From the NCBI GenBank assembly GCA_032718475.1, contig JAUCBJ010002518.1, positions 18,498 through 82,497 of the forward strand: a stretch of DNA of 64,000 nucleotides, in the 5' to 3' direction. The DNA is from Nemertoderma westbladi (Eukaryota > Animalia > Xenacoelomorpha). Positions within the stretch are counted from its first letter, which is position 1. Every line of letters starts with the position of its first letter. The notes under the pieces are model-generated. The model did no database searches. It saw only the letters and a program-made list of their open reading frames with translations, and was not told the DNA's origin. The position numbers and the translations under genes were made by a program. Below, piece after piece: positions 8,506 through 50,933 of this stretch.

Positions 8506-8862
8506 ACAGATTATGCCTCACTGAGACACAGACTATGCCTCACACTGAGGCACAGACTATACCTCACTGAGGCGCAGACTATGCCTCACTGAGGCACAGA
8601 CTATGCCACACTGAGGCCGGGTCTATGCCTCACTGAGGCACTGAGGCACAGACTATGCCTCACTGAGGCTAAGACTATGCCTCACTGAGGCACAGACTAT
8701 GCCTCACTGAGGCACTAAGGCACAGAATATGCCTCACTGAGGCACTGAGGCACAGACTGTGCCTCTCTGAGGCTCAGACTATGCCTCACTGAGGTACTGA
8801 GGCACAGACTATGCCTCTCTGAGGCTCAGACTATGCCTCACTGAGGCACTGAGGCACAGATT
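8506..8862. repeat. 22-bp quasi-palindromic tandem repeat (CTGAGGCACAGACTATGCCTCA)
   Basis: Visible array; subterminal in the Polinton-like element. Confidence 0.92.
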
Positions 8863-9312
8863 AAGGGTCTAAGGCCTTCAAGCTGATCATTTGCTTAGTT
8901 TTCTAATTAGAAGGTCGTGTGTTCGAACCCTAGAAGAGCATTATTCTTTTTCTTAGCTCTAGGCTGACTCTAGTGTACACATACTTTGACTCTCCCAGCT
9001 ATAGTGATAGTATGCAACCTTGGGAGTTAATGCGCTGTCTTACGAGTAAAGGCCAAGAGATTAGACTTCAGGTTGCCTCCATTGATTTACTCTTCTTAAC
9101 TTTATAAAATAACTCAACCCTTATTTAAAGTTTTAAAAATTATGTCTTAGTAGACCAATTTTCCAAAGAATATTATAAAAACATATAATTTCTTGAATAA
9201 ATAGACCTAATAGTAATAAATATTGTGGGGTAAATACATTTATAATACTAATATAATTATTATGGATAAATAGCCCTAATACTATTATGAAAGGAACTCA
9301 AACAAACAAATG

Positions 9313-10281
9313 TCAATAGCGTCGTCCTGCGCGGGCATTTACTGAACGAGAGTTTTTTATCATAGGTCTTCGAAAATTAGTAAAAGCTGGTTGATTTACT
9401 TTACTTTCATCTTCCTCATTACCCAACTGTTTCTTAATTTTATTCAATTGTTCATTAATTTTCAGTAATTTACTTTTATTTCCCAGAACCTGTCTTAATA
9501 TCTCTTCTCTATTTTCCTCATTTTCTTCCATTTGTTTAATAAATTTCCGCATTTGATTTTTGTTTCCTAATATTTGTCTCAATATCTCTTCTTTATTTTC
9601 ATCATTCTCTTCTAAATGTTTAATAAATTTCTGTAATTTAATTTTACTTCCTAGGACTTGGGTCAATGTCGCCTCTTTATTTTCTTCATTTTCCTTCAAA
9701 TGTTTAATAATTTTCCGCAATTGATTCTTATTTCCAAGTAATTGCCTCTTTATTTCCTCATTATCATCATTTTCATCCTCTTCTCCACTTTCCTGATCTT
9801 CACTTTCTTCACCCTCTTTCTGACCTTCACTTTCTTCATCCTCTTCCCCGCCTTCACTTTCTTCATCCTCTTCCTGTTCTTCACTTTCTTCATCCTCTTC
9901 CTGTTCTTCACTTTCTTCATTCTCTTCCTGACCTTCGCTATCTTCACCCTCTTCTTGACCTTCACTTTCTTCATTCTCTTCCTGACCTTCGCTATCTTCA
10001 CCCTCTTCTTGATCTTCACTTTCTTCATCCTCTTCCTGATCTTCACTTTCTTCGTTCTCAACTTCACTCTCTTCAACTTCATCCTGACCCTCACTATTTT
10101 CATTCTCCATCTCATCATCCTCTTCTTCTCCATCTTTCTCACTCAAATTTTCCTCATTTTCTAGGGGTAACTGTTTTTGTATCCCTTTCAAAATATTCAT
10201 AACTTTATGAAATTTACTTTCCATTGTCTGTTTTATATTTAATATTATCACGCTCATCTCTCTTTTTCTTTTCATCTTCAC
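9313..10281 (-). CDS. Acidic (E/D-rich) repeat plus coiled-coil protein carried by the Polinton-like element; likely start MESKFHKV at 10224
   Basis: Open ORF with 11-aa EESEGQEEGED repeats and ~25-aa EEILRQILGNKNQ..KFIK.LEENE repeats. A second copy lies at 41022-41757. Confidence 0.55.
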   Translation of the reverse strand: MKMKRKREMSVIILNIKQTMESKFHKVMNILKGIQKQLPLENEENLSEKDGEEEDDEMENENSEGQDEVEESEVENEESEDQEEDEESEDQEEGEDSEGQEENEESEGQEEGEDSEGQEENEESEEQEEDEESEEQEEDEESEGGEEDEESEGQKEGEESEDQESGEEDENDDNEEIKRQLLGNKNQLRKIIKHLKENEENKEATLTQVLGSKIKLQKFIKHLEENDENKEEILRQILGNKNQMRKFIKQMEENEENREEILRQVLGNKSKLLKINEQLNKIKKQLGNEEDESKVNQPAFTNFRRPMIKNSRSVNARAGRRY

Positions 10282-10420
10282 TAAAAATATCTTCGGATTT
10301 TTTAAATTTTTTTGGTAATGGAGCCATTAGTTTTTCCTTTCTATGTGTTTCCATATGACGAGATAAATTGTCTTGTCTCATTTCTTTATTACAAACCAAA
10401 CAACTTTCATGTCTATGCAT
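10214..10420 (-). CDS. Small C2H2 zinc-finger protein
   Basis: CLVCNKEMRQDNLSRHMETH; conserved in the copy at 41772-41954; promoter-like module directly upstream. Confidence 0.55.
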   Translation of the reverse strand: MHRHESCLVCNKEMRQDNLSRHMETHRKEKLMAPLPKKFKKSEDIFSEDEKKKRDERDNIKYKTDNGK

Positions 10421-10882
10421 TATATAGCAATGTCAATTGATAATATTGAATTTTAGCTAAATGATTTTACAAAATTTTAAATAAATTAAACTTTTATGAA
10501 AATAAATAAAACTTTTTAATATAAAACTTAGAGAATGACTGGGAATGCGTTGAACGGGGGTTATTATAGAGGGAGGCTAGAATGGATTATCCAATCAGAG
10601 TGCGAGGGTGAGTTAGGCAGCCAATCAGGACTCGAGGGAGGAAAGTTAGACAGCCAATGAGAGAGTAGATGCGAGTACAGTGGTAAAGCCCATCCATAGT
10701 TTGATAACGTCACACTAACTCTCAAGGATAGTTATACTCACCATTCAAATATCCCTCGCAAACCAGATTCCCCCCCCCCCCCCCCCTAGCATCTAAAGTA
10801 TTCCACTTCAATGCAAAATATATAGAGCTTTAGTTGGATTTGAACCTGTGCTTGTAAACTTTTTTGTGCTCGTATATTGAAG

Positions 10883-11515
10883 TGAGGCATAGACTATGCC
10901 TCACTGAGGCATAGTCTATGCCTCAGTGAGTCATAGTCTATGCCTCAGTGCCTCAGTGAGGCATAGTCTATGCCTCAGTGAGGGATAGTCTATGCCTCAG
11001 TGCCTCAGTGAGGCATAGTCTATGCCTCAGTGAGTCATAGTCTATGCCTCAGTGCCGCAGTGAGGCATAGTCTATGCCTCAGTGAGGCATAGTCTATACC
11101 TCAGTGCCTCAGTAAGGTATAGTCTATGCCTCAGTGAGGCATAGTCTATCCCTCAGTGAGTCATAGTCTATGCCTCAGTGCCTCAGTGAGGTATAGTCTA
11201 TGCCTCAGTGAGGCATAGTCTTTGCCTCAGTGCCTCAGTGAGGCATAGTCTATGCCTCAGTGAGGCATAGTCTATGCCTCAGTGCCTCAGTGAGGCATAG
11301 TCTATGCCTCAGTGCCTCAGTGAGTCATAGTCTATGCCTCAGTGAGGCATAGTCTATGCCTCAGTGCCTCAGTGAGGCATAGTCTATGCCTCAGTGAGTC
11401 ATAGTTTATGCCTCAGTGAGGCATAGTCTATGCCTCAATGCCTCAGTGAGACATAGTCTATGCCTCAGTGAGACATAGTCTATGCCTCAGTGCCTCAGTG
11501 AGGCATAGTCTGTGT
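10883..11515. repeat. 22-bp tandem repeat (TGAGGCATAGTCTATGCCTCAG), inverted relative to 8506-8862
   Basis: Visible array. Confidence 0.92.
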
Positions 11516-12065
11516 CAGGTCTTAAATGAGAGTCTTACAAATTCGAACGTCAACGAACAAATTCGAAGGTTACTGTTCCACCTTGGTGTAGTGGTTGCGT
11601 TGAATTCACATCTCCCGTATGTCATGGGTTCGATCCTCACATGAACCAGGGCAGTTTTCGTTTGGTTAGCAATAGGCCTAACGTTGCAAAATGCAGTATT
11701 ATTGCCTAGTAACCAATTCATGGCTATCGTATGGTTTTCACTTTAAGACATTTCGCCCTCTAGCGGCAGCCTGGGGAACTTCAGACTACTCTGTGACTCT
11801 GCAAAAGATATGGCCTATGCCATAGTAGATGTCGATTGGGGGGTCAAATTAGGTAATAATATATCTAAATAAGCCTCAAACATCTTGCCTCATGGCTCGC
11901 CCCTTAGAACCCTTAAGCAATATAACTTCATAGTTTTGCGGATTGTAAATAACAAAGCTAGAGAAGATGTTAATTTTTAAATAATACGCCCTCTAGCGGT
12001 AGACAGGGGAACTTCATACTACTCTGTGACTCCGCAAAAGATATAGCCTATGCCGTAGTAGATGG

Positions 12066-12962
12066 CCACACTGAGGCCGGGTCTATGCCTCACTGAGGCA
12101 CTGAGGCACAGACTATGCCTCACTGAGGCACTAAGGCACAGAATATGCCTCACTGAGGCACTGAGGCACAGACTGTGCCTCTCTGAGGCTCAGACTATGC
12201 CTCACTGAGGTACTGAGGCACAGACTATGCCTCTCTGAGGCTCAGACTATGCCTCACTGAGGCACTGAGGCACAGATTAAGGGTCTAAGGCCTTCAAGCT
12301 GATCATTTGCTTAGTTTTCTAATTAGAAGGTCGTGTGTTCGAACCCTAGAAGAGCATTATTCTTTTTCTTAGCTCTAGGCTGACTCTAGTGTACACATAC
12401 TTTGACTCTCCCAGCTATAGTGATAGTATGCAACCTTGGGAGTTAATGCGCTGTCTTACGAGTAAAGGCCAAGAGATTAGACTTCAGGTTGCCTCCATTG
12501 ATTTACTCTTCTTAACTTTATAAAATAACTCAACCCTTATTTAAAGTTTTAAAAATTATGTCTTAGTAGACCAATTTTCCAAAGAATATTATAAAAACAT
12601 ATAATTTCTTGAATAAATAGACCTAATAGTAATAAATATTGTGGGGTAAATACATTTATAATACTAATATAATTATTATGGATAAATAGTCCTAATACTA
12701 ATATAATTGTTATGGATAAATACTCCTAATACTAATATAATTGTTATGGATAAATAGCCCTAATACAATTATGAAAGGAACTCAAACAAACAAATGTCAA
12801 TAGCGTCCTCCTGCGCGGGCATTTACTGAACGAGAGTTTTTTATCATAGGTCTTCGAAAATTAGTAAAAGCTGGTTGATTTACTTTACTTTCATCTTCCT
12901 CATTAACAAACTGTTTCTTAATTTTATTCAATTGTTCATTAATTTTCAGTAATTTACTTTTA
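12066..12962. repeat. Direct duplicate of ~8606-9478 (22-bp array, spacer, 3' end of the acidic ORF)
   Basis: Near-identical sequence by eye; this copy resumes at 41022. Confidence 0.85.
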
Positions 12963-16479: not shown

Positions 16480-18678
16480 TTAGTCCTTCTTACGTGAACG
16501 GCGTTTACGAAGTTTTTTGAGGCTAGTAAGAGTCCTTTTCTCTTTGGGGCGAGCCACTTTACTAGGAGGGCTATAACTCCTGGGTGAGGGGTGCAATACA
16601 ATTGCATCGGAAGGTTCAGGGTTGCGGTCGGTGTATCCGCCGGTCGAGGTACCCGGTTGATCGATATCAACCTCAGTGGAACGAGGTCGAACAACCTTTA
16701 GAGCGCGTTTCAGGACAGCAGCTCTCACTGGTCCCTGATGGGTCGTTTGCACAAGAGCGGTAGGCGGACCGTGAGTAGTGAGAAATTTCCTCAGTTTGAA
16801 GGTTCTTTCCAACTCGCGTTCTCGGGCTCTATATTCATAGGGTCGTCTATGAACTTCCTGTAGCTCTGGATGCGAGTTTATGAACAAGTCACCGCGGGAT
16901 TTATCATTGGTAAAAACCTTAAACTGTGTGTACGATCTTCCGGTTTCACCACATAATATTGAGTTAAATTGACATAATAAGGATGGTCTTTGATTCCATA
17001 AAATGAGTTCGGTAAAGGTCTAGCGCGTAGGTCGTGTACCATACGACGGACAAGATCAGCTCGATTGTCCGGAGGTTCAACGAGTATACCGTCGACACGA
17101 GCAGCCTCAATTGGCAGACGTTGTAACATAGGAGCGTCAGCGATAAGTTCTCTAGATCTTAGGTTGATATCAACCGGTTGGGGTTGTACCATGGCGAAGA
17201 GTTTGTCTCCGAAATGGGGAACCATCGAGGGATGAATGATGGTTTTGGAATAGAGATCAGTAATAAGGGTTTGAGCTTCTGGTTGGGCTAAAGCTGCTTC
17301 TTCTCTCTCGTCCATTTCGATGTGCTTCTCCTCGAGCTGATTTTCCTCCGCTTGTCATTGGAAGCGTTCGTCTAAAAACTCTTGTAGAGAGTAGGTTGGT
17401 CCAAGTTCGATGTCTTCCTCAAGGTTCTGGATTTCTCGATCGAACTGGGGTAAGGCCAATTCCTTTACCGCTTGGACTTGCTGCTGCAATTTAAGTTTAT
17501 CTAAACAATCGGTAAGTTCCTTTTCCAATCTTTTGCCGAATAGCGCCTAACGCGTTTCGTACAACGCTCTCCTCCACCTCTGTGACGGGTTGTATCAGGG
17601 TTAAACCGGGACGATTATACGGGTTGAACGGTGATATTAAATGTCCGCGTCCCAATCCGGCTAGGTAGGATGGGCGAATATCTAGAGAGCCCACTACCGG
17701 AGTGCCACCGACTAATTGTTCGGGTAACACTAGATCTTTGAACAGTGAGTACAGTTCAGGAGGATCCGTCATACTATTAGGATCAAGAGTCTGAGGTCTC
17801 ACCAGGGAATGAGGAGGTCTGACCGAGTATTCCGGAACTCTGATCATAGGTTTGTTTAAGGATCGTTTGAGTCAAGCAACCGTAGGTGATATGTCGAACA
17901 AGTTTCGCTCGAAACTTCCGTAAGTATAGCGAGTAAAACTGTGTTTAGCGCAACGTCTCTGCGGATGTTTTTGTCTTTCCGTTTGTTGGTTGGGTCTAGG
18001 GCATTCATCACAATAATACCAAAGACGCACGTCTTGTAGGGGAAACGCTGGTGATCTTTCTCCAGTTTTACAATATTCCTTCATCTGTTCGAAGCTATCC
18101 GGTACAACAGGTAGCGGTCGATTGGTGGTGAGATACATCATAGTGAAATAGAGTCGTTTGAGTTCGATCATAGGGTTATGATGTATACCTTGAGGATATC
18201 GAGTTTCTAAATTTTGTTGACTGGCTACATTGAGATATGTTTCTCTCAAGAATTCCAAATAGTCGTTGAAGTCACTGCGTTTATCCGGCTCTTCAACGTC
18301 TTCTCTCTCGAGACGGTTTCGAATAGAATTTTCGTGTTCGATTCTCAGTTTATCGTTCCGACTCCGCTGGGCATGATATTTAAACAGGATCATTTCCCTT
18401 TCGGTGTCTACATCGTCCGTATCGTGTAAATCGATAAGATGACCAGTAGTTAAGAAGTCCATATACGTACCATTACGATGCGAATAGCGAGCGGTGAATT
18501 TTCTATAGTCCAATTCACGTGTGAGCTGTTCCTTTGACATTGGCGGTTCTATATAACGGCCATCGTCCTCCGTAGTAGGTTGACTAGCGTCGCCGCTTAT
18601 TAAACTATCAACAAACGCTTGCAATGGTAGGGTATATCGCTCCTTGATACCAAGATCATCTTCTATCAACTCAGTCAT
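16480..18678 (-). pseudogene. Extra ORF (ORF3) of element A, about 730 codons, disrupted, unknown function
   Basis: Four consecutive same-strand ORF pieces between pol and the PPT/3' LTR. 17872-18678 and 17497-17847 are in frame across one stop, then frameshifts follow. Contains CDEC...H...C and a basic C-terminus. Confidence 0.6.
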
Positions 18679-20400
18679 AGCTGCTATATGGGTTTATCAA
18701 TATTATAATTAATGATAGGCTAGCGGTCGTCGCTGCCTCCCCCTCAATGCCCCCGGACAGCGCAAGATCCTCAGCGCTGATGTACTGTCGTCGCTGTGCC
18801 TCTCGCCAATGTAGTAGCTACACAACGACAACAATAACCAGCGCGAGTCACTCCACTGTCCATCCCAGGGGCTTAGAATTACTTCAGGTTCTTGCTACAG
18901 AGGCAGGGTAACTTTCACAACTGCGACTCGCTACTGTAAACACACTTTAGTAGTAACATTCACCTATAAATGCACAAATTCCACACACCTGTCACAAGTT
19001 GTACACATTCGGGCCATTTGTCCATTAGTCAAGTGCCTTCCAGAATGCCACGTTATTATTATGTATCCCTGGATACTAGCAGGGTGCTATTTATTCCACA
19101 TGCTATTCAATGGGGCAAGCTTTCTATTGTTCTTTTAACTCGCTTCTAATTCTAGTGTGGTTGTTGCTATGGTGACATTATGGAAAGCTAGCAGTAGAAT
19201 TAGGGTAATTCTCATGCATACAGATCTGGGATGCTATTTAATAGTAATTCTTTAATTGTCAATATTCCCCTTTATACATGATTTTATGAATTTTATCGGC
19301 TATTGACTATACATTGGAGATTCTCGCACACTAATATACTTAATAGGGTGAATCTCCGCTCCCATGATCTATTAATTAATGGAATTTTGGGAATGTTATA
19401 AATTGTATAAAATGACAATTTATCAAATTCATGAGAGGATATGAATTTAAAATTTATTCCCGTAAATTTTATTATTTGACACTAAAATAGACACAATTTT
19501 ATTCCAGAGCATGTCTGGGAACTAGGATCCTTAATTCTAGGAATTTTGTCTTTTTAAGAGTATCGGTAAGTGTTACGATATCTTAATTGACTAGAAATTT
19601 AAAGGATCTAAATTTTAACAGATTTTTGGTTTACAAACTCTTTAGGGTTTATTTGTCAGCATTTACTCTATTATAACATTTGTTTTAATAGATTTTATAA
19701 ATATTTATTAAATATTTAATATTTAAGATGGGCACCGATTTATTCCAGAACATGTCTGGGGATGTTAAACACTGATTCTAGAATTTTGTCTTTCAAGTAT
19801 ATCGGTGGGTGCCGCGATATCTTAATCGACTAGAATTTCAGATGGTCAAAGGGTTTAACAGATTTATTTTGCGTTTTTAACGCTACTGTTAAATGGACAT
19901 CATTCTACTATATGTATTATTTAATATACGGTATGAGAGCAATATTGCAAGAAGCAATGTCAGTGAGAAGAGGCAAGTCGTTTCCAAGGTCTACCCAGAG
20001 CTTGGTTTAGCCGAGACACGAGGATCTGAACTTTGCATTCCTAATACTCTACTTACCAATAATACTTGAGTATAGTAGGAGCGGTATTGTACTTTTAATA
20101 AGTACGGACATTTCATCTTACTGTAGTCACGTATTTATAATATAACACGGACAGTAAGGAAAGAGAAAATGAATTATTTCTCGCCGTTAAACTAAATATA
20201 TAATGCTAAGTAATTAAGTAATAAACACGAATATATATTGCACGAATCTACTGAATAATCGCTAAAATAATATTCTACTAAATAAAATTAAAGAAAACGA
20301 TTATAATAATAAAAATTACGTAATAATACATACATAAATATAAAAATAATAATAAAAATATATATAAAATAATGTAGTCACACACCCACTCCAGACGCTG

Positions 20401-26672: not shown

Positions 26673-27581
26673 TTTTCTTTCAGATTCCGCAGCTGCCGCC
26701 TTCCGCTGCTGCTGACCTTCGGTCTTCTATTTGCCTTTTCTTTATCTGCTCTTCTTGGTCCATCGCTATGAGGATGCTTTCATCAAATTTAACCTGCTCC
26801 GCAGCTAATATTTCCGCATCTAACGAGTCCAACACAAATTTGGCTCCCTCACTATTAGGGTGAAGTCCAGCTAGCCGTCTCCTTAGCTCTTTGTCACCTA
26901 TAAATCGTTGATAGTCCGACAGATAGATGTCAATAGCATCCTTCTTGTTAGCTTATTCAATCCCGCTAACACCCCATAAAGTTATAAGCCGATAAGCAAT
27001 ATTGGGAGCCACGAGATTGGGCAATTAACCAACTCGTGCCATCCCAATAAGAGTGGGAAGGAAGCACACAATAAAGGGTCAGGGGCCAAACCCCTAACCC
27101 AGAGAGTACAGGTGGAGTGAACGGGAACACTCCACGGGGCGCCAACAAGGGTATCAACCAATCAGAGGGGGGCAAGGCATCGATTAGGTAGTAATTAGGC
27201 CAACCGTGCAATATAATCAGTAACCTATTAATCAGTAATTCAGTTATCTCAATGCAGTAGTGCTAGCATAGGTTAGTTAGTTTAGATAGGGGAGCACGGG
27301 ACTTTTAGTTACCGTATCCCGCCTTCCACATATCTATATCTATATCTTATACCCATCAGTTATTATACACCAAACATCAGAACTCATTCACTGCTTTCGT
27401 TTACTCTTTATACACGGCGGGGACGCGTAAACTAAAATACCGGATAAATCGGGATCCCTCCTGGATCCCGTCACAGTAACTAAAATCTAGTTGCCGCCCT
27501 AGCTAAACTGTAAAAGTAACTAAAACCAGCTGCCGCCCCAGATAAAAGCCAAACCACCAGTCACCAATCTGCAGAAGAGAG

Positions 27582-28567
27582 ATGAGCCAGTCAGGTGAAT
27601 CGACACCGCCGCGGACCCCGGACGACGATCTAACGATCCGCGAGGCCACGGCGAGACGATACGAACCCACGACGCCGGTCGATGCTACGCCGACCACGTC
27701 GACGCACGTTGACGCCACGTCGATAACGAGCGACCCGGCGAACCAAGATGTGGGGGGTCGTCTACAAAGAGGGGACGAGTCGGGAGTCGAAAGGGAGAAA
27801 GACGAGGTCAACGTACCGATGTCGCCGGCCAGCCACAGGCCGAGGACGACGAACGGTCCACCGGAACGGCGACGGTGGGGCCGTCGGTACGACGTCGGAC
27901 CCGGAGAGATGGAGGAGAGGTCGGCGACGAGGACGTCGGGGTTTCCGATCGACTTCGACGGGCCTACAACGCGACCCGGGAACTACTAAAGGAGGCCAAG
28001 GAGGGGGCGAGGATAGACGAGGTCAGGATGACAAAGGGACTAGGTGAGTCGAACAGATACTTTGATCACCTAGTGTGTTCTGGGCAGAGAGAACTGGCCG
28101 GGGAGAGAGCGAGAGGGGTTGCCTTCGAACTGTTTGGGCTATGGGAACGTAGGGGTATGGGGCCTGGTGTAGTGTACATAGGGCCATACTTAGTCGATGC
28201 CAGGGAAGTTAAGTTAGTGGGTTGGAAGAGACATGGGGAGGGCGAATCCGAGGTTAACTCCGAGGATTCGGTCTCGTCGGTCGGAGGAAGTTCTGGGAAG
28301 CGGGGGAAAGTTAGTAGGACGGAGGGGCGACGGGAGTCCGTCGCAACCGATAAGTCTGCTACATCCTCCGCAAAAGAAAGAAGGGTGCGAGAGAGTGAAC
28401 GCGTGGCGTATAAATTAGAAAAGGCGGCGGCAGAGCGGAAACAGTTAGAGGGGCAATTGAGAGAGCAAACCGCATTATTAGAGTTGGTAAGGGAGGATAG
28501 AGAGAGAACAACAGGGGCAACGGGAAACACACCAGGGAAGGTGAAAGGGCGAGAAGTGGGATATTAG
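27582..28567 (+). pseudogene. Element B gag N-terminus (frameshifted, truncated)
   Basis: Overlapping ORFs 27582-27989 and 27875-28567 just after the 5' LTR; SVSS/coiled-coil low-complexity sequence as in BEL gag N-termini. Confidence 0.55.
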
Positions 28568-28877
28568 CCAATGGGGGGACAGCATCGACTAGGTACAGTA
28601 ATATGGCCAACTGTGCAGTACATATATTACCTGTTGGTGCTTCCCTATTCAGTTTAGTTTACTCAGTCAGATCAGTAGGGTGGAACGGGGACTTCTGTCA
28701 CCGTCCGCTACCGCCATCATACTTATTACCTGTTGTGTCATACTATACTATATATCTCAGACTATTATACCTTTATACATATTACCGAACATCAGAACTC
28801 TTTTACCTTTCACACACGGCGGGGACGCGTGGATAGAAAACCCAACGGATAAACCGGGATCCGTAGATCCCGTCACA
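28560..28877 (+). mobile_element. 3' part of a related B-type LTR (variant B2) inside element B
   Basis: Homologous to the B LTR and to the solo LTR (ATTAGCCAATGGGGG...CACGGCGGGGAC...GATCCCGTCACA). Confidence 0.8.
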
Positions 28878-29010
28878 GTGACAGAACAGATCAGATACAG
28901 GGCGCGAGGTTCGCGACATCCTAAAAGGATTCGGCTTTAACCTGACAAAATTCCAATCCAGTTCGGAAGAATTTATCAAAGCCATAGAGGACAGGAAACC
29001 AGAATCGACC

Positions 29011-31497
29011 ATGGATAACCCCACAACAGCCAAAGGGCAGGACATGGCGATTAAGAGAACAGAATCTCAGCAGAAGGCATTGGGAATCGTGTGGGATAGA
29101 AAGACAGACGAACTGAAGTATCAGCTGAGCCAGGAGGGCGCAGACATCCACACAAAGAGGGGCTATGTATCGTATATAGCAAGGATATACAATCCCCTAG
29201 GCCTAGCATCCCCATTATTAGTCACGGGGAAACAGATACTCAAGAGAGTATACAAATTGAAAGATGAGTGGGACGTAGAGGTACCAGAGGAAATCAAGAA
29301 ACAGTGGAGCAAGTGGACAGGAAACCTGGAGAAGATGGGAACATACAACATGCCAAGGGTGTATTTCCCGGATGGGAACATGACGAATCTGGACCTACAC
29401 ATGTTCTCCGACGCGTCGTTGGAAGCGTACGGAGTGGCACTCTACTTAGTACAACGAGAGGGGGCTCATAAGCCAAGGCTAGCCTTTAGCAAAGCAAAGT
29501 CAACGCCGCCAGATTCAGCATCAGTTCCCAAGTTAGAATTGACAGCTGCGAGACTAGGAGTAAGAGCCACAGCCTACCTAGTGGATACTATTCCCAACAT
29601 AGTGGAGACACACTACTGGACGGACTCCATGGTAGTGCTTGGTTGGCTACACAACGAAAAGACGAGATACCCGATGTTCGTCGCGAATAGAGTGGACGAA
29701 ATAAGGGCGAGCACAGAACTGGAACTGGGGTGGCACTACTGCCCAACAGACGAGAACCCAGCGGACTTGCTGTCGAGGGGCGTGGAACGCCACACTTTCC
29801 TGAAGAAGGAAGTATTGTGGCAACATGGGCCACAATTTCTGAGCGATAGGGAGGCCTGGCCGCCGATGAGGAAGGTGGACCCGGGCTCGGAAGTAGTATC
29901 AGAAGGAGAAGAGGGAGACTCAGAGGGAGAAGAGATATACTCCCAGATGGCGAGGGAGATTAGGGACGTGCAACTGTGCAGGAAAGGAAAGGAACTGTGC
30001 GATAACCCGACGGATAAACTCCTCAGCTACAGTTCTAGTTGGTATAAAACCAAGAAACTAGTGGCGTACTGGAGAGCCTTCGGAAATTTCCTTGCGGGAG
30101 TCGGCAAGGACAAGAAGATCAGGACAACCATAGATCTGGAAGGAGCGGCCAAGGCAGTGATCCGCTATGAACAACGGAAGAACTACGGCGACGAGGTGGA
30201 ACGCGTCGGTAACCAACAGCACCTCCGACGGGATAGCGAGCTGATTACGCTGTCGCCACAACTCAATGACGACGGGATTCTAGTAATGAATTCTAGGGTG
30301 GGATACAACAACAGCATAGTCGTACCACCGAAACCCATCATCATTCCCACAGGATCGCCAATAGTCCACCAGATTATATGGGACTCCCACAAATCGATAT
30401 TGCATGGGGGCACCAACCGAACCCTCACAGAGATAAGGAGGACCTATTGGGTCAAACAATTAAGGAAGAAGGTTAAAGTGGTAGTGGGGCAGTGCCAGAC
30501 CTGCCGACGAGCGAAGAAGGAGCGAGCCATACAGGAGATGGCGCCACTACCGGCGAGTAGGGTAAGACAGCACGACCCGCCATTTACGCATTGCGGTGTG
30601 GACATGTTCGGGCCGATAAAGATCAAAGTGATGCGACACACGGAGAAACGCTACGGCATTATCTTCGTATGCAACAATACGCGGGCGGTAGGGATAGAAC
30701 TCGCCCAAGATGCAACCGCATCAGCGTTCATTAACGCCTTGGAAAGATTTAGGGACCGCAAAGGTGGGACGATCGCAGTGATATACAGCGACAACGGCAC
30801 CAACTTTGTGGGCGCAGAGAGTGAGATGGCAGAGGCCTTGGACATCTTGGAGGGGGAAGAAGTCAGGGCAGCCATGAGACGACGACAAGTAAAGTGGGAG
30901 AGAAGGACGCCTTATGCACCACATACACTAGGATGCGTCGAGAGACTAGTGGGCAGTTCAAAGCGTCTAATGATGAAGCTAATGAATACCCACATGGTCA
31001 CTGAGGACGTCTTACGGACAGTACTTGCGAAGTGCGAGGGGATCATTAATAGCAGACCGCTATATCCGGAGAATGATGACCCTGAGTCACTAGACGTGCT
31101 AACGCCTAGCCATTTCCTGATGGAAAGGCCAGCAACCATCGATATGCGGGGTGTAGACCCAGACGACATACACTCCCGCCAAAGTTGGAAAGTCGCTAAA
31201 GCGATAAGCGCAGAGTACTGGAGGAGGTGGGTCGAGGAATACCTACCCACCCTCCATAAGCGAAGCAAGTGGAGGAAGCCGAACAGGGAGTTAAGAGAGG
31301 GAGATCTCGTAATCGTTACGGATGATACTATCATCAACAACCAATGGCGGTTGGCGAGAGTTGTAGGCACCTACTCCGACGAGGACGGAAGAGTCCGATC
31401 GGTAGAAGTGCGGATAGGTGGAAAGATAGGTGCGAAGGACAGAAAAACTTACAGGAGAGCTATAGGTAAATGCTGTCTATTGGAAGGGGCACCTTAG
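29011..31497 (+). CDS. Element B pol C-terminal part: RT thumb, Pao RNase H, integrase
   Basis: YNPLGL, HMFSDAS, PKLEL, WTDS, NPADLLSRG; HHCC (H..ILHGG...CQTC); DDE core GVDMFGP / SDNGTNF / VERLV; ends RAIGKCCLLE. The upstream GFNLTKF RT remnant shows protease and RT core are deleted. Confidence 0.93.
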   Translation: MDNPTTAKGQDMAIKRTESQQKALGIVWDRKTDELKYQLSQEGADIHTKRGYVSYIARIYNPLGLASPLLVTGKQILKRVYKLKDEWDVEVPEEIKKQWSKWTGNLEKMGTYNMPRVYFPDGNMTNLDLHMFSDASLEAYGVALYLVQREGAHKPRLAFSKAKSTPPDSASVPKLELTAARLGVRATAYLVDTIPNIVETHYWTDSMVVLGWLHNEKTRYPMFVANRVDEIRASTELELGWHYCPTDENPADLLSRGVERHTFLKKEVLWQHGPQFLSDREAWPPMRKVDPGSEVVSEGEEGDSEGEEIYSQMAREIRDVQLCRKGKELCDNPTDKLLSYSSSWYKTKKLVAYWRAFGNFLAGVGKDKKIRTTIDLEGAAKAVIRYEQRKNYGDEVERVGNQQHLRRDSELITLSPQLNDDGILVMNSRVGYNNSIVVPPKPIIIPTGSPIVHQIIWDSHKSILHGGTNRTLTEIRRTYWVKQLRKKVKVVVGQCQTCRRAKKERAIQEMAPLPASRVRQHDPPFTHCGVDMFGPIKIKVMRHTEKRYGIIFVCNNTRAVGIELAQDATASAFINALERFRDRKGGTIAVIYSDNGTNFVGAESEMAEALDILEGEEVRAAMRRRQVKWERRTPYAPHTLGCVERLVGSSKRLMMKLMNTHMVTEDVLRTVLAKCEGIINSRPLYPENDDPESLDVLTPSHFLMERPATIDMRGVDPDDIHSRQSWKVAKAISAEYWRRWVEEYLPTLHKRSKWRKPNRELREGDLVIVTDDTIINNQWRLARVVGTYSDEDGRVRSVEVRIGGKIGAKDRKTYRRAIGKCCLLEGAP

Positions 31498-31619
31498 CAA
31501 AGCTAGAGGATATTTTAGTCGTCCAAGTTTTGGACTGAGGGGGGTGGGATTGAGGGCGAGACGCCCTTCCCACAAACAAAATAATAAAATAAAATAAAAA
31601 AAATAGTACATGGTAGGTA

Positions 31620-32290
31620 CGCAGTTAGTAGGCAGAGAGTTAGTTAGAAGGTACGTAAGTACCTAGTTAGTTAGTTAGTTAGGAGGTACGTAGTACCGCC
31701 AGTTAGAGAGTTAGTTAGAGGGTACGTAAGTACCGTTAGTTAGTTAGTTAGTTAGGAGGTACATAGTACCGCCAGTTAGAGAGTTAGTTAGAGGGTACGT
31801 AAGTACCGTTAGTTAGTTAGTTAGTTAGGAGGTACATAGTACCGCCAGTTAGAGAGTTAGTTAGAGGGTACGTAAGTACCGTTAGTTAGTTAGTTAAAGA
31901 GTTAGAGGGTACGTAGTACCGATAGTTAGTTAGAAGAGTTAGAGGGTACGTAGTACCGATAGTTAGTTAGAGAGTTAGAGGGTACGTAGTACCGATAGTT
32001 AGCTAGAGAGTTAGAGGGTACGCAGTACCGATAGTTAGTTAGAAGAGTTAGAGGGTACGTAGTACCGATAATTAGTTAGAGAGTTAGAGGGTACGTAGTA
32101 CCAATAGTTAGCTAGAGAGTTAGAGGGTACGCAGTACCGATAGTTAGTTAGAGAGTTAGAGGGTACGTAGTACCGTTAGTTAGAGAGTTAGAGGGTACGT
32201 AGTACCGATAGTTGGAGTTAGAGTTAGAGGGTACGTAGTACCGTTAGTCAGAGTTAGAGTTAGAGGGTACGTAGTACCGTTAGTTAGAAG
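31620..32290 (+). repeat. Tandem array of ~30-37-bp units, each with a GGTAC-N3/4-GTACC hairpin and (AGTT)n linkers
   Basis: Visible, about 20 units, between pol and the extra ORF. Confidence 0.9.
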
Positions 32291-32778
32291 AGAGAGAGTA
32301 AGAGGTAAAAAGGGGTATATAAGATATAGATATTAGTTAGCAGTTAGTAGCGAGAGGGGGGCATATGAGTACAGCTGGGTAAATCGTGTGGCCACACGAC
32401 GTATACTGCTGTACCGCATAGACCCACAGGGTAGGCCAGAATGTGGATTAGAGAATAGAGTAATCCATAGGCAGTAGTAAGTTGTAGGACAGTAGAATCA
32501 AAGTAAATAAAATAAATAAATAGAATAGGGCTGAAAATTGTAAAATAGTGGCAACACAAGGGAAGTTATTCTAGAACATAATAAAAGTAACGGACAGAAA
32601 TCGAAATTAGGGTGTATTTACTAGCTTCAAAATTAATTAGGAATAATTTAGGTTAAAAGGCGCAGTTAAGTAGGAAGTAGGCCATTATCGAACTGTACAG
32701 AACATCCTAGACACATCACTCATCTGTATTGCGCCTTGGTAAGGCACCACCTTGCAGGTGAGCGAGTGAACGTTCGGA

Positions 32779-35325
32779 ATGGCGAGTAAGTTGATCAGAA
32801 AGAGAAAGGCGGAGTCAGGAGGAAAGGAGATACTGGTGGATTTCACCGAGAGACATACGGAAGAGAAGACGAGAGGATACTACGAGAGGTTGGAAAGGGG
32901 TCACGCGGCACGAGCGCTGCAGGATCACTTCCGGGAGGCGCACAAACAGCGGCTGGTCGGGACCTACGGGACCCCGTCGCTAGACAACGCGATCTTCCAA
33001 CACTTCCACTACGTGGTGAAAGGGGACGAGGCGAAGTTCGGGATTCCGAAATACCCGAGGGAATCACCGAGGAAGGACTGGAAAAGATTCATAGAGTCCG
33101 TCAACAGAGGAGGATATATGATCCTAGATGACGAGGGAACCGTGGAAGACGAGGCGGGCTCGAGACGAGGAACGGCAGGGTCAGCCAGGACCATACTCCT
33201 ACATTTGGCCGCGCCAAATGGGGACATCTTCTTATTCGACCTAGGGACGTATGGGAAGAAGGACGGGCCGAAATTAGACCGATTACCGAAAGCGGTACAA
33301 GTCTTAGTAAGAGAGAAGTCGACGACGAAAGTGGGATCGGCGATTCGCGAGGACGCGGAGAGGATCATCGGTCCGGACGCCACCAACCTCCTGGATATGC
33401 AGAAAGTCTTTATGGCTATGACGGCACCGGATGGATTGGGGGTAGTCGAAAACACAGGCCAATGTGGGGCGGTGGCGATGGGCCAATTATTGGGGCTCGT
33501 ATGCCACAAACCGATGGAGTGGGGGAAGTTTAGGGAAGAATACGGGGCAGAACTAGCAAACTCGCTAAAGTGGGGAGCTAGACCGGGAAAGCAGGAGGTA
33601 TATCAGTTCCGCAGGGGAGCGATAAAGGTATATCAGAAGCGATATATCCTGCAGGAGGACTGGATGATGATAAGTTTGCTTAACTTATTCATGACCATGA
33701 TTATCGAGAGGGAACCAGGGGCATTTCTGTTATCGGGATCACCCCTAAGCTACAGGAGAGCCTTTAAAGTGGCCTTTGACGGTCTGGTAGACCACCCGGG
33801 GCTGAAGGGCGAGTCGGTGTATTACAACAGCCGACATCTGGTAGACGGGGAGACAGATACACCGTATCAGAGATGGGAGCAGTTAGAGACGGATAGACGA
33901 GAAGCAAAGCGACTGGAAGAAGTCGCTAGACGGGAGAGGATAGAAGCAGAGGAGAGGGAAGAGGAGGCCAGGACACAGAGTTACGGCTTCGAGGAACAGG
34001 CGGGCCTAGACGAACTTCATTGGACTTCGTCAGGGAGTTCGGGGGAGTCTCTAGGGCGAGAATTGGGATGGACGGTGGGATCGCCGAAACAGTCGACGTC
34101 GGGGTTGCGAACGATGCCCATACCAGCGGGCGCCGAGGGCGACCAACCGCCAAGGAAGTTAAGGGAGCTAGAGGGATGGAGAGCTACGGGCGAGAGCCAA
34201 GGTGGGAAGGGACATAGTGGATCCATCGGGATACCGGGATTGGAGACACTACCAGAGGAGGACGACGACGACGAGTTCGGAGAGATACCGCCCATCGAGA
34301 GGATAGGCCACTCGGACACGGACTGGGTTGGCGGAAGGGTGGTGACGGCCAGTGGGGCGAGGGCCTTCTGGAACAGATCCGGCAAGCGGACCTGGGTGCA
34401 CGAGGAGCCGGCGATGGATTTCGCGGGGAGCACCATCAGGTTGGGCGAGCAACCGGGGACGGCACCACGGATAGTATTCGGGGAGACGATGCCCGAGAGG
34501 GGCGGAGAGATCGACGTAAACAGGGAGACCAACGTAGAGAAGTTCGCCTACCAGCGACTCCACAGACTGCAGAGATCGCTTGGGACGAAAGACGAGGTGG
34601 GATGGGAGACATTGGTACTCGGCTGCGACTACTGTGGGAGACAGACCCATCGGGAAAGCAGCTGCCTATACCGGTTCCAACAGGGAACCTTTTGTCTCTA
34701 CTGCAGAGAACCAAGCCACAGGATGGGGGCGTGTCCACGGTTGCATAACCGATGTCCAAAGTGCCACTTTCGGGGACACTACGGACGCGAGTGCGACTGG
34801 ATGAACGACGAGGAGAAGTTCACAAGATTCGAGGAGTAGGCCGACGTCGGGGCCATGACGCGCCAGTGCATGAAGGCCCAGGAGTTTAAGTGGGGTTTCT
34901 TCCTTATCAATCAGGAGACTCACATGGAAATCATAAAGCGGAGGCTACCGTTTACCTACCAGGAGGTAGCAACGGCGGCGTCGTACGCTGGAGTGATGAA
35001 CACGCAAAGGTATCTGGACAGGTGGACGCCAGAGAACCGAAGGGAGTTTAGGGATTTCTTGGCGGAGCACGTACCAAAGGCAATGAAAATGATCCTATGG
35101 GACTCCACTAGAGGGAGACAACCGGGCCATTCTGAGGGGCCACCGGCGAAGCGATATCGGGCACTAATAACACCAGCGCCCAAGGAGCCAACGACCGGGA
35201 TCAGCAAGGAAGTGGCGGCGAAGGTCCGAAAGCAGAAAGCGGATGATGCCAGAGGAACGGTGATAACCAAGAAGCGGCCCAGGGAAGAGGACGCTAGGGG
35301 GAACTACCCCCGGAGGAACAGATAG
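32779..35325 (+). CDS. Element B extra ORF: DEDDy (WRN/EXD/RNase D-like) 3'-5' exonuclease plus three CCHC zinc knuckles; one in-frame TAG at 34837-34839
   Basis: ExoI ILDDEG, LLHLAA, LFDL, LPKAVQVLV..KVGSAIREDA (ExoII), NLLDM and QKRYILQED (ExoIII-like). CDYCGRQTHRESSC, CLYCREPSHRMGAC and CPKCHFRGHYGREC. ORF 34855-35325 is in the same frame. Confidence 0.72.
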
Positions 35326-36561
35326 GTTCCCAGAGTCGAGGGAGAGAGACTGGGACTTGGACGTGGTACGCCTGGCAGGCGCCGCGTGGGACGTACGAAC
35401 TATTAAGTACAAATTTAATTAATGCAAATAATCATATAAGTGAAATCTGTATGTACGTACGTAGTGATTAGTAATCTAGAAATATATACGTTCGGAGTAA
35501 GTACTATAGTCATACAACCTTTCTCAATTAGCTACTGGGACTGGGGGATAACTGACTATGGCACTATGGACGAGACACCAGACAATTTCACACTTCTTGA
35601 GTGCGACGGCACGAGAGGGGGGGGAGATTCGTCAGAAGGGAAGAGACAGTCAAAGTGAGGTTGAGGGACGGAATAATAGTGCGGAGTGCGGAGAGAGTGC
35701 GGACGCAATTCTAGTGTGGGGGGGGAGAATAAGAGGCTGAGTGAGGGACGAGGAGGTCTGAGTGTGAGAGAGTTAGGGTGAGAGTGAAGGTGAGATAGGG
35801 CGGAGGTGTTGGGGAAACAAAAGTTGCGTGAAAGGTGAGCGCGATTGGCCCGACATGAGACGCCAGGCAAACAGGGTAGCGTTATCATACCCATAGGGGG
35901 CGGCCTGGAAAGCCAAATCCGAGAAAAAAGAATTCCACCCCACACCCGATACTAGATCGGGATCCAGCGGGATTGTAGCGCACTTTTTGGTTGATGCTAT
36001 CTTCTTACCGGGAAGATAGCATGGGGGGGAGTGTTAGCTTATTCAATCCCGCTAACACCCCATAAAGTTATAAGCCGATAAGCAATATTGGGAGCCACGA
36101 GATTGGGCAATTAACCAACTCGTGCCATCCCAATAAGAGTGGGAAGGAAGCACACAATAAAGGGTCAGGGGCCAAACCCCTAACCCAGAGAGTACAGGTG
36201 GAGTGAACGGGAACACTCCACGGGGCGCCAACAAGGGTATCAACCAATCAGACGGGGGCAAGGCATCGATTAGGTAGTAATTAGGCCAACCGTGCAATAT
36301 AATCAGTAACCTATTAATCAGTAATTCAGTTATCTCAATGCAGAAGTGCTAGCATAGGTTAGTTAGTTTAGATAGGGGAGCACGGGACTTTTAGTTACCG
36401 TATCCCGCCTTCCACATATCTATATCTATATCTTATACCCATCAGTTATTATACACCAAACATCAGAACTCATTCACTGCTTTCGTTTACTCTTTATACA
36501 CGGCGGGGACGCGTAAACTATAATACCGGATAAATCGGGATCCCTCCTGGATCCCGTCACA

Positions 36562-37514
36562 CTTCTTCTGAGGTTTCCCGGATATAACTTCGCCTTCCAC
36601 CTGAGAAAAAGTAGCGACTGTTGATTCTCCGTGGGTCATGTGCTCCGTTAGCTGAACTTTCCATTGTGTCGTTCCCTGGGCTTTAAGACTTACCCGTTGG
36701 AACCAAGTCTTTACGGCCACTTGCAACGACGTGTCTTGGCTTCTCTTCTAGGCTTCCTCAAAGGCTGAAAGGATTAGTCTGATCCGTAAAATTCGTTCTC
36801 GCACTTGATAAAGCAGCTCTCCCTGCTCTTGAGGTCCTTGATGTTGTTGAAATAGGTGTTCCTCTAATCTCTCCAAAGAACTGAAGAATCCCTGGACATA
36901 TCCTGCTGCCGACCTCTTCCATACAGCTGGATCTCTAGTGTCCCTTACTATCACCATCCTGTATAAGTCCTCCCAGGCAGCTTCCGATAAGTTAAACGGG
37001 AGTCCGGGTCCGGGGAAGTTCCATTGCGTCTCGACAATAGACCTCAGTTCCTCCATCGTCTATCCCGCATAACTGTCCCTGGTCGATCGCTTATTTCTCG
37101 CCCAATCGATTTGATGTTCCTCCTCCACAATCAATACTCTAGTGAGTACGGCCCCAGGAAGAATTAGAAGTGGATCTGGATAAACCGCTTCTGCCATCCT
37201 TGCTCCGATCTCGGGCGTCAACTCTTCAGTGTCTGAACTACTAGAGTTATCGTGCCATTGAGAAATAAGTTATCGGTTCGGGTGGTGCTGCTGTTTAACA
37301 GCTGCTTCTTGGTCCCGCTTAACTTGAGCCCTAGTGCCTATAATAGACCTATGGTGCTTTACTAGCGTAGGGTCTGATACTACTACTGTAGGGATGACCT
37401 TTCTTACAGTAGGAGGGGACTTGGACTTTGGTCTCAGATGTTCGATACTCTTATCGAGTTACAGACTGTTCTTTCTAGGAGACTATCTGACAGGGTTTGT
37501 TTTGTGTCAGCCAT
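36562..37514 (-). pseudogene. Element A gag N-terminus (disrupted)
   Basis: Homologous to the open ORF starting at 62168 (EELRSIVETQWNFPGPGLPF...RIRLILSAFEEA). Confidence 0.85.
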
Positions 37515-40238: not shown

Positions 40239-41015
40239 GACGATTTATCCTAGTGGTGTGGGTGGACGATGTATCCTAGTGGTGTGGGAGGACGATGTAT
40301 CCTAGTGGTGTGGGTGGACGATGCATCCTAGTGGTGTGGACGATGTATCCTAGTGGTGTGGGTGGACGATGCATCCTAGTTGTGTGGACGATATTTCCTA
40401 GTGGTGTGGGTGGACGATGTATCCTAGTGGTGTGGGTGGACGATGTATCCTAGTGGTGTGGGTGGACGATGCATCCTAGTTGTGTGGACGATATTTCCTA
40501 GTGGTGTGGGTGGACGATGTATCCTAGTGGTGTGGGTGGACGATGTATCCTAGTGGTGTGGGTGGACGATGCATCCTAGTTGTGTGGACGATATTTCCTA
40601 GTGGTGTGGGTGGACGATGTATCCTAGTGGTGTGGGTGGACGATGTATCCTAGTGGTGTGGGTGGACGATGCATCCTAGTTGTGTGGACGATATTTCCTA
40701 GTGGTGTGGGTGGACGATGTATCCTAGTGGTGTGGGTGGACGATGTATCCTAGTGGTGTGGGTGGACGATGTATCCTAGTGGTGTGGACGATGTATCCTA
40801 GTGGTGTGGGTGGACGATGCATCCTAGTTGTGTGGACGATATTTCCTAGTGGTGTGGGTGGACGATGTATCCTAGTGGTGTGGGTGGACGATGTATCCTA
40901 GTGGTGTGGGTGGACGATGTATCCTAGTGGTGTGGACGATGTATCCTAGTGGTGTGGGTGGACGATGCATCCTAGTTGTGTGGACGATATATCCTAGTGG
41001 TGTGGGTGGACGATG
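40239..41015. repeat. 26/22-bp minisatellite (GACGATGTATCCTAGTGGTGTGGGTG)
   Basis: Visible tandem array. Confidence 0.95.
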
Positions 41016-42283: not shown

Positions 42284-42842
42284 TGTTAGCTTATCCAATT
42301 CCGCTAACACAAACCCATAAAGTAAGCCGTTAAGCAATATTGGGAGCACGAGGTTGATTACCCAACCTCGTGTCACCCCAATAAAGTGGGAAGGAGAAAC
42401 ACACAATAGGGGTCAGGGGCCACACCCCTGACAGAGAGAGAACAGCAAGGGCGAAGGGAAGCACTTCAGAGGGGGGCAAAGGGTGCCAACAAGGATATTA
42501 GCCAATGGGGGGAAAGCATCGACTGAGTAACACCACGTGGCCAACCGTGCAATATATATTACCAGTCATTATTATCCCATTCACTTAGTAAGTCAGTTAG
42601 TTAGGGTAGTAACGGAACTCTAATCACGTCTCCGTCCACTGCCACCATCACCGTTCAATGCATTACCGGTATTCACCCACTTTATCATTATATCAGCTTC
42701 TACTGTGTTTATACTATTATACCCTATATTATATATACACCGATCAGTCAACAACACCGGAACTCTTTTACATTACGCACGGCGGGGACCGTAGATTAGA
42801 AACCAACCGGATAAATCGGGATCCTTGGTGGATCCCGTCACA
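42284..42842 (+). mobile_element. Solo LTR of B-family variant B3
   Basis: TGTTAGCTTAT...GATCCCGTCACA with 5-bp TSD TAAAC at 42279-42283 and 42843-42847. The empty site is seen near 10730-10740. Confidence 0.9.
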
Positions 42843-43244: not shown

Positions 43245-44003
43245 CTGAGGCATAGTCTGAGCCTCAGTGAGGCATAGTCTGTGCCTCAGTGCCTCAGTGA
43301 GGCATAGTCTGTGCCTTAGCGAGGCATAGTCTGTGCCACAGTGCCTCAGTGAGGCATAGTCTGTGCCTTAGCGAGGCATAGTCTGTGCCTCAGTGCCTCA
43401 GTGAGGCATAGTCTGTGCCTTAGCGAGGCATAGTCTATGCCTCAGTGCCTCAGTGAGACATATTCTGTGCCTCAGTGCCTCAGTGAGGCATAGTCTGTGC
43501 CTCAGTGCCTTAGTGAGGCATAGTCTGTGCCTCAGTGCCTCAGTGAGGCATAGTCTGTGCCTTAGCGAGGCATAGTCTGAGCCTCAGTGAGGTATAGTAT
43601 GTGCCTCAGTGCCTCAGTGAGGCATATTCTATGCCTCAGTGCCTCAGTGAGGCATAGTCTGTGCCTCAGTGCCTCAGCGAGGCATAGTCTGAGCCCCAGT
43701 GAGGCATAGTCTGTGCCTCAGTGAGGCATAGTCTGTGCCTTAGCGAGGTATAGTCTGTGCCTCAGTGCCTCAGTGAGGCATAGTCTGAGCCCCAGTGCCT
43801 CAGCGAGGCATAGTCTGAGCCTCAGTGAGTTATAGTCTGTGCCTCACTGAGGCATAGTCTGAGCCCCAGTGAGGCATAGTCTGTGCCTCAGTGAGGCATA
43901 GTCTAAGCACCAGTGAGGCATAGTCTGTGCCTCGGTGCCTCAGTGAGGCATAGTCTGTGCCTCAGTGCCTCAGCGAGGCATAGTCTGAGCCCCAGTGAGG
44001 CAT
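43245..44003. repeat. 22-bp tandem repeat, right subterminal array of the Polinton-like element
   Basis: TGAGGCATAGTCTGTGCCTCAG units, inverted relative to 8506-8862. Confidence 0.92.
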
Positions 44004-44997
44004 AGGATTAAATGTTCTAATTAATTGATGACACCCGTAAATTAGGGTCTAATTAGCCTAATTAGGAGGTGTCACCCAGACAGTCTGACGCCAATGACAC
44101 CCAATGACACCCTAGGTGTCACATTCCTAAGCGATGAGTCATGAGTTGGGTCTAACTGTCGCCGAGCCGGCTATACTCCTACTACTGGAAACTTAATTGG
44201 TAACTAAGTAGAAGAGTGCAAAGTTTAGTCAATCGATAGTCATTGGACTAAAGATTGTCTGTACCAAATTTGGAGAACCCCATCTAATAGCTATGTTAAA
44301 TCCTTGTTGCTAAGGAAAAACACATGAAATTGAAAGTGATACAATTATTATATTTTTATAGAGTTTTTCTATACTAACGTTAACCTGAACAATGGCCTAC
44401 CGGTACTAATAATAGGCTTTGACTTAACACAAACATAGACATAAAACTACTATTTATATGAACACAAAACACAAAAAACAACTACAACAGGCAGTTAAAC
44501 ATATATATGACTAGCCCCATATTTATTCTTATTTTATGTACAATTCGAATACATTACTGTATACAGATAGATATAACAAATAACTACTATTTTATTCATT
44601 CATATGCAGACAACTACAAAGTCACTTATTTGAGAAGTTCGCTTTGGAGGGACTTCGCAAAGAACAAAATTTCCCTGAGATTCCACACTAGACTATTTGG
44701 CGAAATTAATCTCTGAGCTATACGTTTGAGGATCACTGAGTGTTGATATCAAATTGTTATCACAAATTTTTCTTATCATCAATCGCACATGAAAACTAAC
44801 AGAACAAAGCAGTATATACTACAAGTATTAAATATCGCCTCAGGAAAAGTCTAGAAGCATACGAGTCACAGCCAACAGGAATGGGCTGCGTGAGTGAACA
44901 AATAATACAAGTTCATTTTCAATTATTGCACTTCCTAAATAAGTTGTGAAATCCATCCATTCAAATATCTCAAATGATGATTACCTTTGCAAAGTCT

Positions 44998-47049: not shown

Positions 47050-47289
47050 ATTATTTTGGTTTATTTCACTATTATAAATGTTAAAATATTTCGTAGGTGG
47101 ATTTTACTAAAGTTTATTAATCTTTGAATATTCTGCACGTAGATCAACTTGTTAGGCTAGTTAAGTGCTAAAAATAACCTACGTTCTGGAACATATATTT
47201 ATGTAATATACTATTCAAAAACTCTTAGCAACTACTTACGTAATTTTATTTCAAGTTGATGATTATTGCAAAGCTCTGCATTCAACTAT

Positions 47290-50701: not shown

Positions 50702-50933
50702 GATTTCTAGAAGAATGGTATGTTAAACAGGCTGAGTGCAATCAAGAATGTGTGGTACCTTGTACCCAATGGGAATATTCATTCGCAGTTGAAAAGGAAT
50801 CCGGCGTACCAACAGATTCATATGGATTAGATCACGACTTTGAAAACTATCCAAAGTTACACACACTAGCTCAACAACTCTGTAGCGGTGAAAATAGTGA
50901 TGAAACAAGTACAGAGTGGATAGATTGCGCAAG
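50702..50933 (+). CDS. DEG/ENaC exon (end of thumb, C..PC....Y motif)
   Basis: Acceptor TTTGCGCAG| and donor AAG|GTAGGT. Phase 1 matches the exon ending at 4212 (C+GA = Arg). Encodes FLEEWYVKQAECNQECVVPCTQWEYSF... Confidence 0.82.

Follow-up and report, generated by a model that had tools for sequence, protein, structure and literature searches.

The window analysed here, a stretch of 64,000 nt from contig JAUCBJ010002518.1 of Nemertoderma westbladi, holds a BEL/Pao retrotransposon family (family B) and raises the question of what primes its minus-strand DNA. The ICTV description of the Belpaoviridae gives an 18-nt PBS for tRNA-Arg or tRNA-Gly and priming by tRNA, and calls their replication poorly understood (PMC8742986). 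After the 5′ LTR of the family B element B1, the site begins with GT and no TGG tRNA PBS is present, as the initial annotation of this DNA had noted. From the sequence evidence it is considered likely that family B primes minus-strand DNA with a segment of its own LTR RNA, in the manner of Tf1, instead of with a host tRNA, and self-priming by any route is considered very likely. The observed basis is a complementarity of 9-10 bp, its polarity, matched changes on both sides, and the same layout in distant families.

Structure of the B1 element

The features of the window that bear on this question are collected in Table 1. B1 is a young BEL/Pao element with an internal deletion; its LTRs are 99.4% identical (3 differences over 530 bp) and are flanked by the 5-bp target-site duplication (TSD) CTTCT at 26941-26945 and 36562-36566. 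Because the LTR pair, the TSD and the purine tract fix the LTR end at 27475, this boundary was placed without use of the pairing described below. The gag-like fragment, of which only the 5′ part is left in B1 (ORF 27713-28567), gave no Pfam match. In the pol remnant, PF05380 (E 1.6e-38), PF17921 and PF18701 were found above the cut-off in that order and PF00665 below it, the RT being reduced to its tail. With a gag fragment followed by a partial B2 LTR and an RT tail, B1 is broken and would therefore have been mobilised solely by the proteins of another copy. Its LTR and PBS were usable in cis when it last moved, since the LTRs are 99.4% identical and the TSD is intact. The extra ORF gave no match in Pfam and PDB comparisons; an Atlas lead (0.93) connected it, as a lead only, with a cluster that carries PF01612 on 34% of its members. 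Rotifer LTR elements are known to carry DEDDy ORFs, according to extracts of PMC5408684.

Table 1. Positions of family B and family A features in the window
Feature	Position	Strand	Remarks
B1, whole element	26946-36561	+	BEL/Pao, LTR-bounded
B1 5′ LTR	26946..27475	+	530 bp, TG..CA
B1 candidate self-primer segment	27303..27312	+	perfect 10-nt complement of 27476-27485
5′ arm of long stem after B1 primer segment	27313..27323	+	MFE fold, long-arm test
3′ arm of stem and bulged decoy complement (27427-27437)	27416..27437	+	MFE fold, long-arm test
Terminal hairpin with variable loop	27450..27470	+	kept in B1, B2 and B3; folding
B1 PBS position	27476..27485	+	begins GT, without TGG; complements 27303-27312
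Second copy of B1 PBS 10-mer	27516..27525	+	in 40-nt leader duplication
Broken gag-like 5′ fragment	27582..28495	+	truncated by B2 LTR piece; taken as gag from its position
B2 partial LTR	about 28496-28877	+	primer segment 28693-28701, decoy 28829-28838; inside B1 element
B2 PBS position	28878..28886	+	complements 28693-28701
Pol remnant of BEL/Pao type: RT tail, RNase H region, integrase	28894..31497	+	Pfam
Extra ORF, 689 codons	32770..34839	+	possible 3′-5′ exonuclease-like domain and Cys/His knuckles; lead only
B1 polypurine tract	36023..36031	+	directly before 3′ LTR
B1 3′ LTR	36032..36561	+	partner of 5′ LTR
B3 solo LTR	42284..42842	+	TSD TAAAC; primer-position segment 42619-42627, decoy 42791-42800
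Family A, long LTR, tandem arrangement	16401-12968, 40136-37129, 59364-64000	−, −, +	BEL/Pao

Pairing between the LTR and the post-LTR site

All sequences quoted in the initial annotation were found in the window where it had placed them, and the complementarity that it had reported between the first ten bases after the B1 5′ LTR (27476-27485) and a segment within that LTR (27303-27312) was confirmed. This 10-mer is the longest perfect complement, and the 3′ base of the primer segment pairs with the first post-LTR base. For the post-LTR bases of B2 the longest perfect complement within the LTR is 9 nt, at 28693. Control flanks (those of the solo LTR B3 and of the B1 3′ LTR) gave a longest LTR complement of 5 nt, against 10 in B1 and 9 in B2. 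When the 6255 other GT-starting sites of the window were examined, the B1 LTR contained a complement of the full 10 nt for one of them, and the B2 LTR a complement of 9 nt for 17.

B1 and B2 differ at three of the first nine post-LTR positions, and all three differences are compensated on the LTR side at the homologous location. Pairing of the B1 primer was valued at −8.2 with its own PBS versus −4.1 with that of B2, and pairing of the B2 primer at −11.9 with its own versus +0.4 with that of B1. Covariation had been claimed over three LTR variants; at the PBS it was found in B1 and B2 with these three matched changes, thus in two variants and not three, because B3, being a solo LTR, informs the evidence on the decoy but not that on the PBS.

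Downstream of the B2 LTR piece (67% identity with B3 in 424 columns), some 15 nt lead to the RT tail. The 9-mer of B2 was also considered as RT coding sequence, which was rejected: 28878..28886 has a stop in the RT frame, so that it is leader and not coding, and RT homology begins near 28894. The whole piece (28496-28893: LTR, 9-nt PBS, a few bases, RT) could have arisen by deletion, or could be a captured cDNA end with a PBS overhang as in Tf1, in whose cDNA the PBS is often retained and copied as single-stranded DNA (extracts of PMC11042837). The second copy of the B1 PBS 10-mer, which had been annotated as a repeat of the site, is present in B1 and is missing from a deep class of contigs in three runs (joint 27481 to 27523); the 40-nt leader repeat is probably limited to some copies and not a feature of the family. 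An intron in family B was rejected, as splicing lowers the B1 pairing (8 versus 10 bp) and B2 and B3 are without AG at the matching place. A search of 26900-29000 against Rfam gave no match, and no tRNA gene match was obtained either.

Family A, the second BEL/Pao family of the window, probably has the same self-priming anatomy, judged from an LTR end that is itself only likely. Its plus-strand copy has an 11-bp complement (59777-59787 versus 60110-60120) at a GT-starting site 3 nt after the likely LTR end, and the other copies have G-U pairs or a bulge within the complement. A further ORF of family A, at 17872-18693 (−), is unexplained.

Variation among family B copies

In public DNA contigs of the same organism family B is high-copy, with many variants. 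In four runs no substitution of at least 4% was listed in 27303-27312 or 27476-27487, and one T of the primer segment 27303-27312 was missing in about 6-10% of the depth. The distal decoy positions differ among copies, and 27436, 27438, 27488 and 27491 are variable. In one contig two of the first nine post-LTR bases were unlike B1. A group of five contigs with a B2-like loop had one of seven post-LTR bases unlike B2; set against the complement predicted for B3, it agreed at five post-LTR positions and departed at the sixth. These differences represent variation and not covariation, the LTR-internal partners lying outside the visible sequence; as further post-LTR variants, they are unlike a site reset from one tRNA. 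Contigs aligned to B3 had no loose end at 42842 among the matches listed, and a variant at 42622, inside the B3 segment, occurred in contigs without linkage to a PBS.

RNA folding and the decoy helix

The decoys and the stem into which they extend had been proposed for B1, B2 and B3, and both were borne out: the long arm has a pairing energy of −24 to −27 kcal/mol, which none of 500 shuffles attained for any of the three, and the best partner of every variant is its own decoy. In all three the segment can adopt either a local hairpin (−9 to −17 kcal/mol) or the longer helix formed with the decoy (−23 to −27 kcal/mol). The B1 primer:PBS helix lies 1.5 kcal/mol above the predicted ground state (pair probability 0.02), and that of B2 lies 10 kcal/mol above it in a stretch that includes non-native post-deletion sequence. 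A family-wide decoy across BEL/Pao relatives was rejected, a significant downstream decoy being found in 1 of 11 other families; the decoy is a feature of family B. Of the initial proposal of self-priming by a switchable RNA, the self-priming is well supported, with the same anatomy in distant families, and the switch is supported only in part, the helix being real in B1, B2 and B3. From the folding models, it is plausible that the decoy gates priming.

BEL/Pao relatives

Relatives were collected by an alignment search of metagenome contigs, in which the best 80 of 537 confirmed stretches fell into 51 families at the 90% identity level. Six of these families had a 5′ LTR end that could be fixed by comparison with the 3′ LTR and was CA; f25, f26 and f36 (ends not CA), the LTR pair of L038 (downstream of the matched pol) and families with the 3′ LTR cut by the contig end were left out of the count. 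Two of the six carried TGG no further than 3 nt from that end, and their complements did not exceed background. Family f1 had a 10-bp complement in the unspliced genomic sequence, and in f2, f20 and f30 a complement of 7-9 bp in the genome grew to 11-12 bp when an LTR-internal GT-AG intron (77-186 nt) was skipped; not more than 0.8% each (≤0.008) of 1500 random GT-starting sites were as good. For f30, locus L050 gave 11 bp and L060 gave 7 bp, its donor variant being missed by the strict pattern.

Six further loci came from contigs of prokaryote genomes, where they are probably host contamination, and four were examined. L081 and L082 have complete LTR pairs, are 78% identical internally and each pair over 11 bp when a predicted intron is skipped; they differ in the exon-1 part and correspondingly in the PBS. 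When their parts were swapped, any GT being allowed as donor, all four pairings reached 11 without discrimination; consensus donors gave 8-10 in swapped pairings versus 11 in their own. These two (L081 1001-1885 and L082 1001-1793) are complete BEL/Pao elements in a bacterial MAG, probably from the host, and make a clean natural pair.

Taken together, 6 of these 8 other animal BEL/Pao elements with fixed ends are self-complementary (10-12 bp) and 2 carry TGG, and 5 of the 6 reach full pairing only once a predicted GT-AG intron is removed from the LTR. Such restoration by intron removal points to pairing at the RNA level, the LTR introns being predictions from consensus alone. Scanned blind at 3.5-4.1 kb upstream of their pol match, 12 of 30 families gave matches; as controls, the opposite strand gave 2 of 30 and the interior of gag 3 of 30. 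An intron is required in 9 of the 12, and the matches of two (f13 and f38) are open to doubt. The donor responsible for the longer pairing ranks in the best consensus class of its LTR in 10 of 12 spliced cases. A swap matrix, which is partly circular, gave means of 10.5 on the diagonal and 5.0 off it. Independent cases are fewer than these counts: f17, f20 and f22 share one PBS, as do f34 and L083, f2 is the sister of f24, and a single assembly series supplied many of the loci.

The primers end in AC except in L081 and L082, which are paired one base further, and the base 3′ of the primer (C, G, A or T) is not conserved. None of the 15 candidate sites listed has TGG in the 8 nt that directly follow the LTR end, and the pairing sets in 0-3 nt from the LTR end with the polarity of priming. 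A search for the LTR-end pattern of family B in viral contigs, metagenome contigs and contigs of prokaryote genomes gave 0 matches, and a Pol search of viral contigs found no relative.

Classification and Pol phylogeny

The Pol of family B is of BEL/Pao type, its best relatives being 27-34% identical, and PF05380 occurred in 119 of 120 homologues among the matches listed. The Pao-type order of RT, RNase H and integrase, the TG..CA LTRs, the polypurine tract and the short TSD agree with BEL/Pao membership; family B does not belong to the Tf1/sushi group, as its Pol is Pao-type and not Ty3/gypsy. The 18-nt tRNA-Arg/tRNA-Gly PBS listed as a trait by the ICTV is absent, with no TGG at the LTR end. 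Because membership of the family rests on Pol, this trait looks non-universal in BEL/Pao.

In a Pol tree (818 columns, 30 rows, quick method) both TGG families lay inside an insect-rich group delimited by starred branches, and family B lay outside it, as did all eight of the well-supported self-complementary families included in the tree. Forcing family B into the insect-rich group was rejected (AU p = 0.031), with the caveats that family B forms a long branch and that the grouping under test was chosen once the tree had been viewed. The tree gives modest support to self-priming in family B. As a guess from host range, as given in extracts of PMC8556966, the clade of family B may be Sailor.

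Other features of the window

A single-exon ORF at 44998-47103 (−) is NSUN-type RNA methyltransferase-like, with weak NSUN5 matches (E 0.05) and, presumably, a likeness to NSUN7. A satellite at 50906-58728 comprises 166 copies of a 47-bp unit, and further arrays lie at 2588-3788, 31634-32288 (inside B1) and 40239-41015. A repeat family built on a palindromic 22/30/52-bp unit occurs at 8499-12279 and 43245-44005, in several copies and both orientations.

Proposed mechanism and alternative explanations

In the proposed mechanism, LTR transcription would begin upstream of the segment, where a TATA-like motif and an initiator-like motif lie close to 27240; this predicted start, which the promoter-like motifs place about 60 nt upstream in B1, would give the primer a 5′ extension of about 40-60 nt. 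Released from its local hairpin or the decoy helix, the segment would anneal to the PBS, probably assisted by Gag, and cleavage of the RNA directly behind the paired ..AC, with RNase H the probable enzyme, as it is in Tf1, would leave a 3′-OH. RT would then copy U5 and R as far as the cut and jump to the 3′ R. The paired sites would change together because the primer would be copied into the plus strand and the PBS rewritten from it every cycle. The primer of many relatives is divided by a predicted LTR intron and that of family B is undivided; such an intron would survive replication, since a cut at the primer would let it be recopied from the 3′ LTR. Weak points are that pairing is limited to 9-12 nt despite the longer predicted 5′ tail of the primer, that in family B it is 9-10 bp, A/U-rich and shorter than the 11 of Tf1, and that the primer:PBS helix of family B is off the ground state in the folding predictions.

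A host tRNA or tRNA fragment may instead be the primer, as copia and Ty5 are primed by a tRNA half, the pairing of LTR and leader then serving packaging, dimerisation or translation control. This is unlikely, even though the ICTV gives the 18-nt tRNA-Arg/tRNA-Gly PBS for the group (PMC8742986) and the priming helix is not the MFE structure: the candidate sites listed are devoid of TGG over their first 8 nt, the post-LTR sequences are A/T-rich and unlike between sister variants, and the pairing starts at or next to the LTR end with priming polarity. The pairing in relatives, moreover, follows the predicted splice junction of the element RNA, and neither a tRNA nor a DNA duplication would readily account for a PBS that matches such a junction. 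The same argument bears on the possibility that the complementarity is a functionless product of chance or a relic of local inverted duplications. Short A/T-rich matches do occur (2-3 in 30 families in the controls) and the leader has a local duplication; however, sites as good were rare in the window (1/6255 and 17/6255), the pairings use homologous positions with different letters, and a match spanning a predicted intron is impossible by DNA duplication, so that this explanation is already largely refuted and is very improbable.

Priming by the element's own RNA could also proceed without a cis cut of the Tf1 type, from a second packaged RNA, the 3′ copy of R, a short LTR transcript or a 2′-OH branch. 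The segment is internal by the predicted start and is present in the 3′ R too, cis and trans are indistinguishable from sequence, and the end could be trimmed by the possible 3′-5′ exonuclease ORF (lead only). Branching from a fixed G, as in retrons, was rejected, the base after the primer being variable, and a cut in the 5′ R at the primer 3′ end would be the simplest way to retain an LTR intron. These routes are rated quite unlikely, and priming by the LTR segment after a cut in cis is preferred. On a wider scale, the chances appear even that a large, mainly marine-invertebrate branch of BEL/Pao swapped tRNA priming for a self-primer that, in most of its members, the host's splicing assembles by removing an LTR intron, so that replication is tied to splicing; family B would be intron-less and would use its decoy helix as the gate.

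BEL/Pao is one of the three main superfamilies of LTR retrotransposons. If the proposal is true, self-priming, described or predicted, extends to the third of them, and the failure of such elements at the tRNA-PBS filters of annotation tools is explained. It also bears on whether hairpin priming preceded tRNA priming, a question raised in extracts of PMC3601003.

Comparison with known systems

No report of self-priming in BEL/Pao and no precedent for a primer assembled across a splice junction were found among the papers listed in a literature search of openly available articles; term look-ups in the BEL/Pao surveys PMC554778 and PMC3118150 returned no mention of PBS or tRNA. Like the Belpaoviridae of the ICTV (PMC8742986), family B has the order RT-RNase H-integrase, LTRs within 0.2-1.2 kb, a polypurine tract and an extra ORF, which is an optional feature of that group; unlike them, it has no TGG where its LTR ends.

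Extracts of PMC6317226 and PMC7175516 give self-priming as described in Tf1/sushi and as a prediction in Tcn1 and TAR. For the plant TAR elements (Ty1/copia; Houba, Osr-1) and Tcn1, the criterion was an LTR complement of at least 10 bp starting 0-5 bp after the 5′ LTR; these elements belong to other superfamilies, in plants and fungi, and the same extracts mention no decoy or intron (PMC6317226). B1 attains this length with 10 bp, and B2 has 9 bp.

Cer7 of C. elegans, a BEL-type element, is said to encode its own tRNA-like primer as a separate unit in the 3′ region. Family B differs from it in that the pairing partner is a segment of the LTR, with no tRNA gene or Rfam match.

In Tf1 the RNA's first 11 bases pair and RNase H cuts between bases 11 and 12, as stated in extracts of PMC7175516. 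Family B resembles Tf1/Tf2 of Schizosaccharomyces pombe and the Tf1/sushi group in lacking a tRNA PBS and in having an LTR segment that complements the PBS adjacent to the LTR. The Tf1/sushi segment is about 11 nt and consists of the first RNA bases, whereas that of family B is 9-10 nt and predicted to be internal; and unlike Tf1/sushi, which is Ty3/gypsy, family B combines a BEL/Pao Pol with a decoy helix, and its relatives appear to splice their primer.
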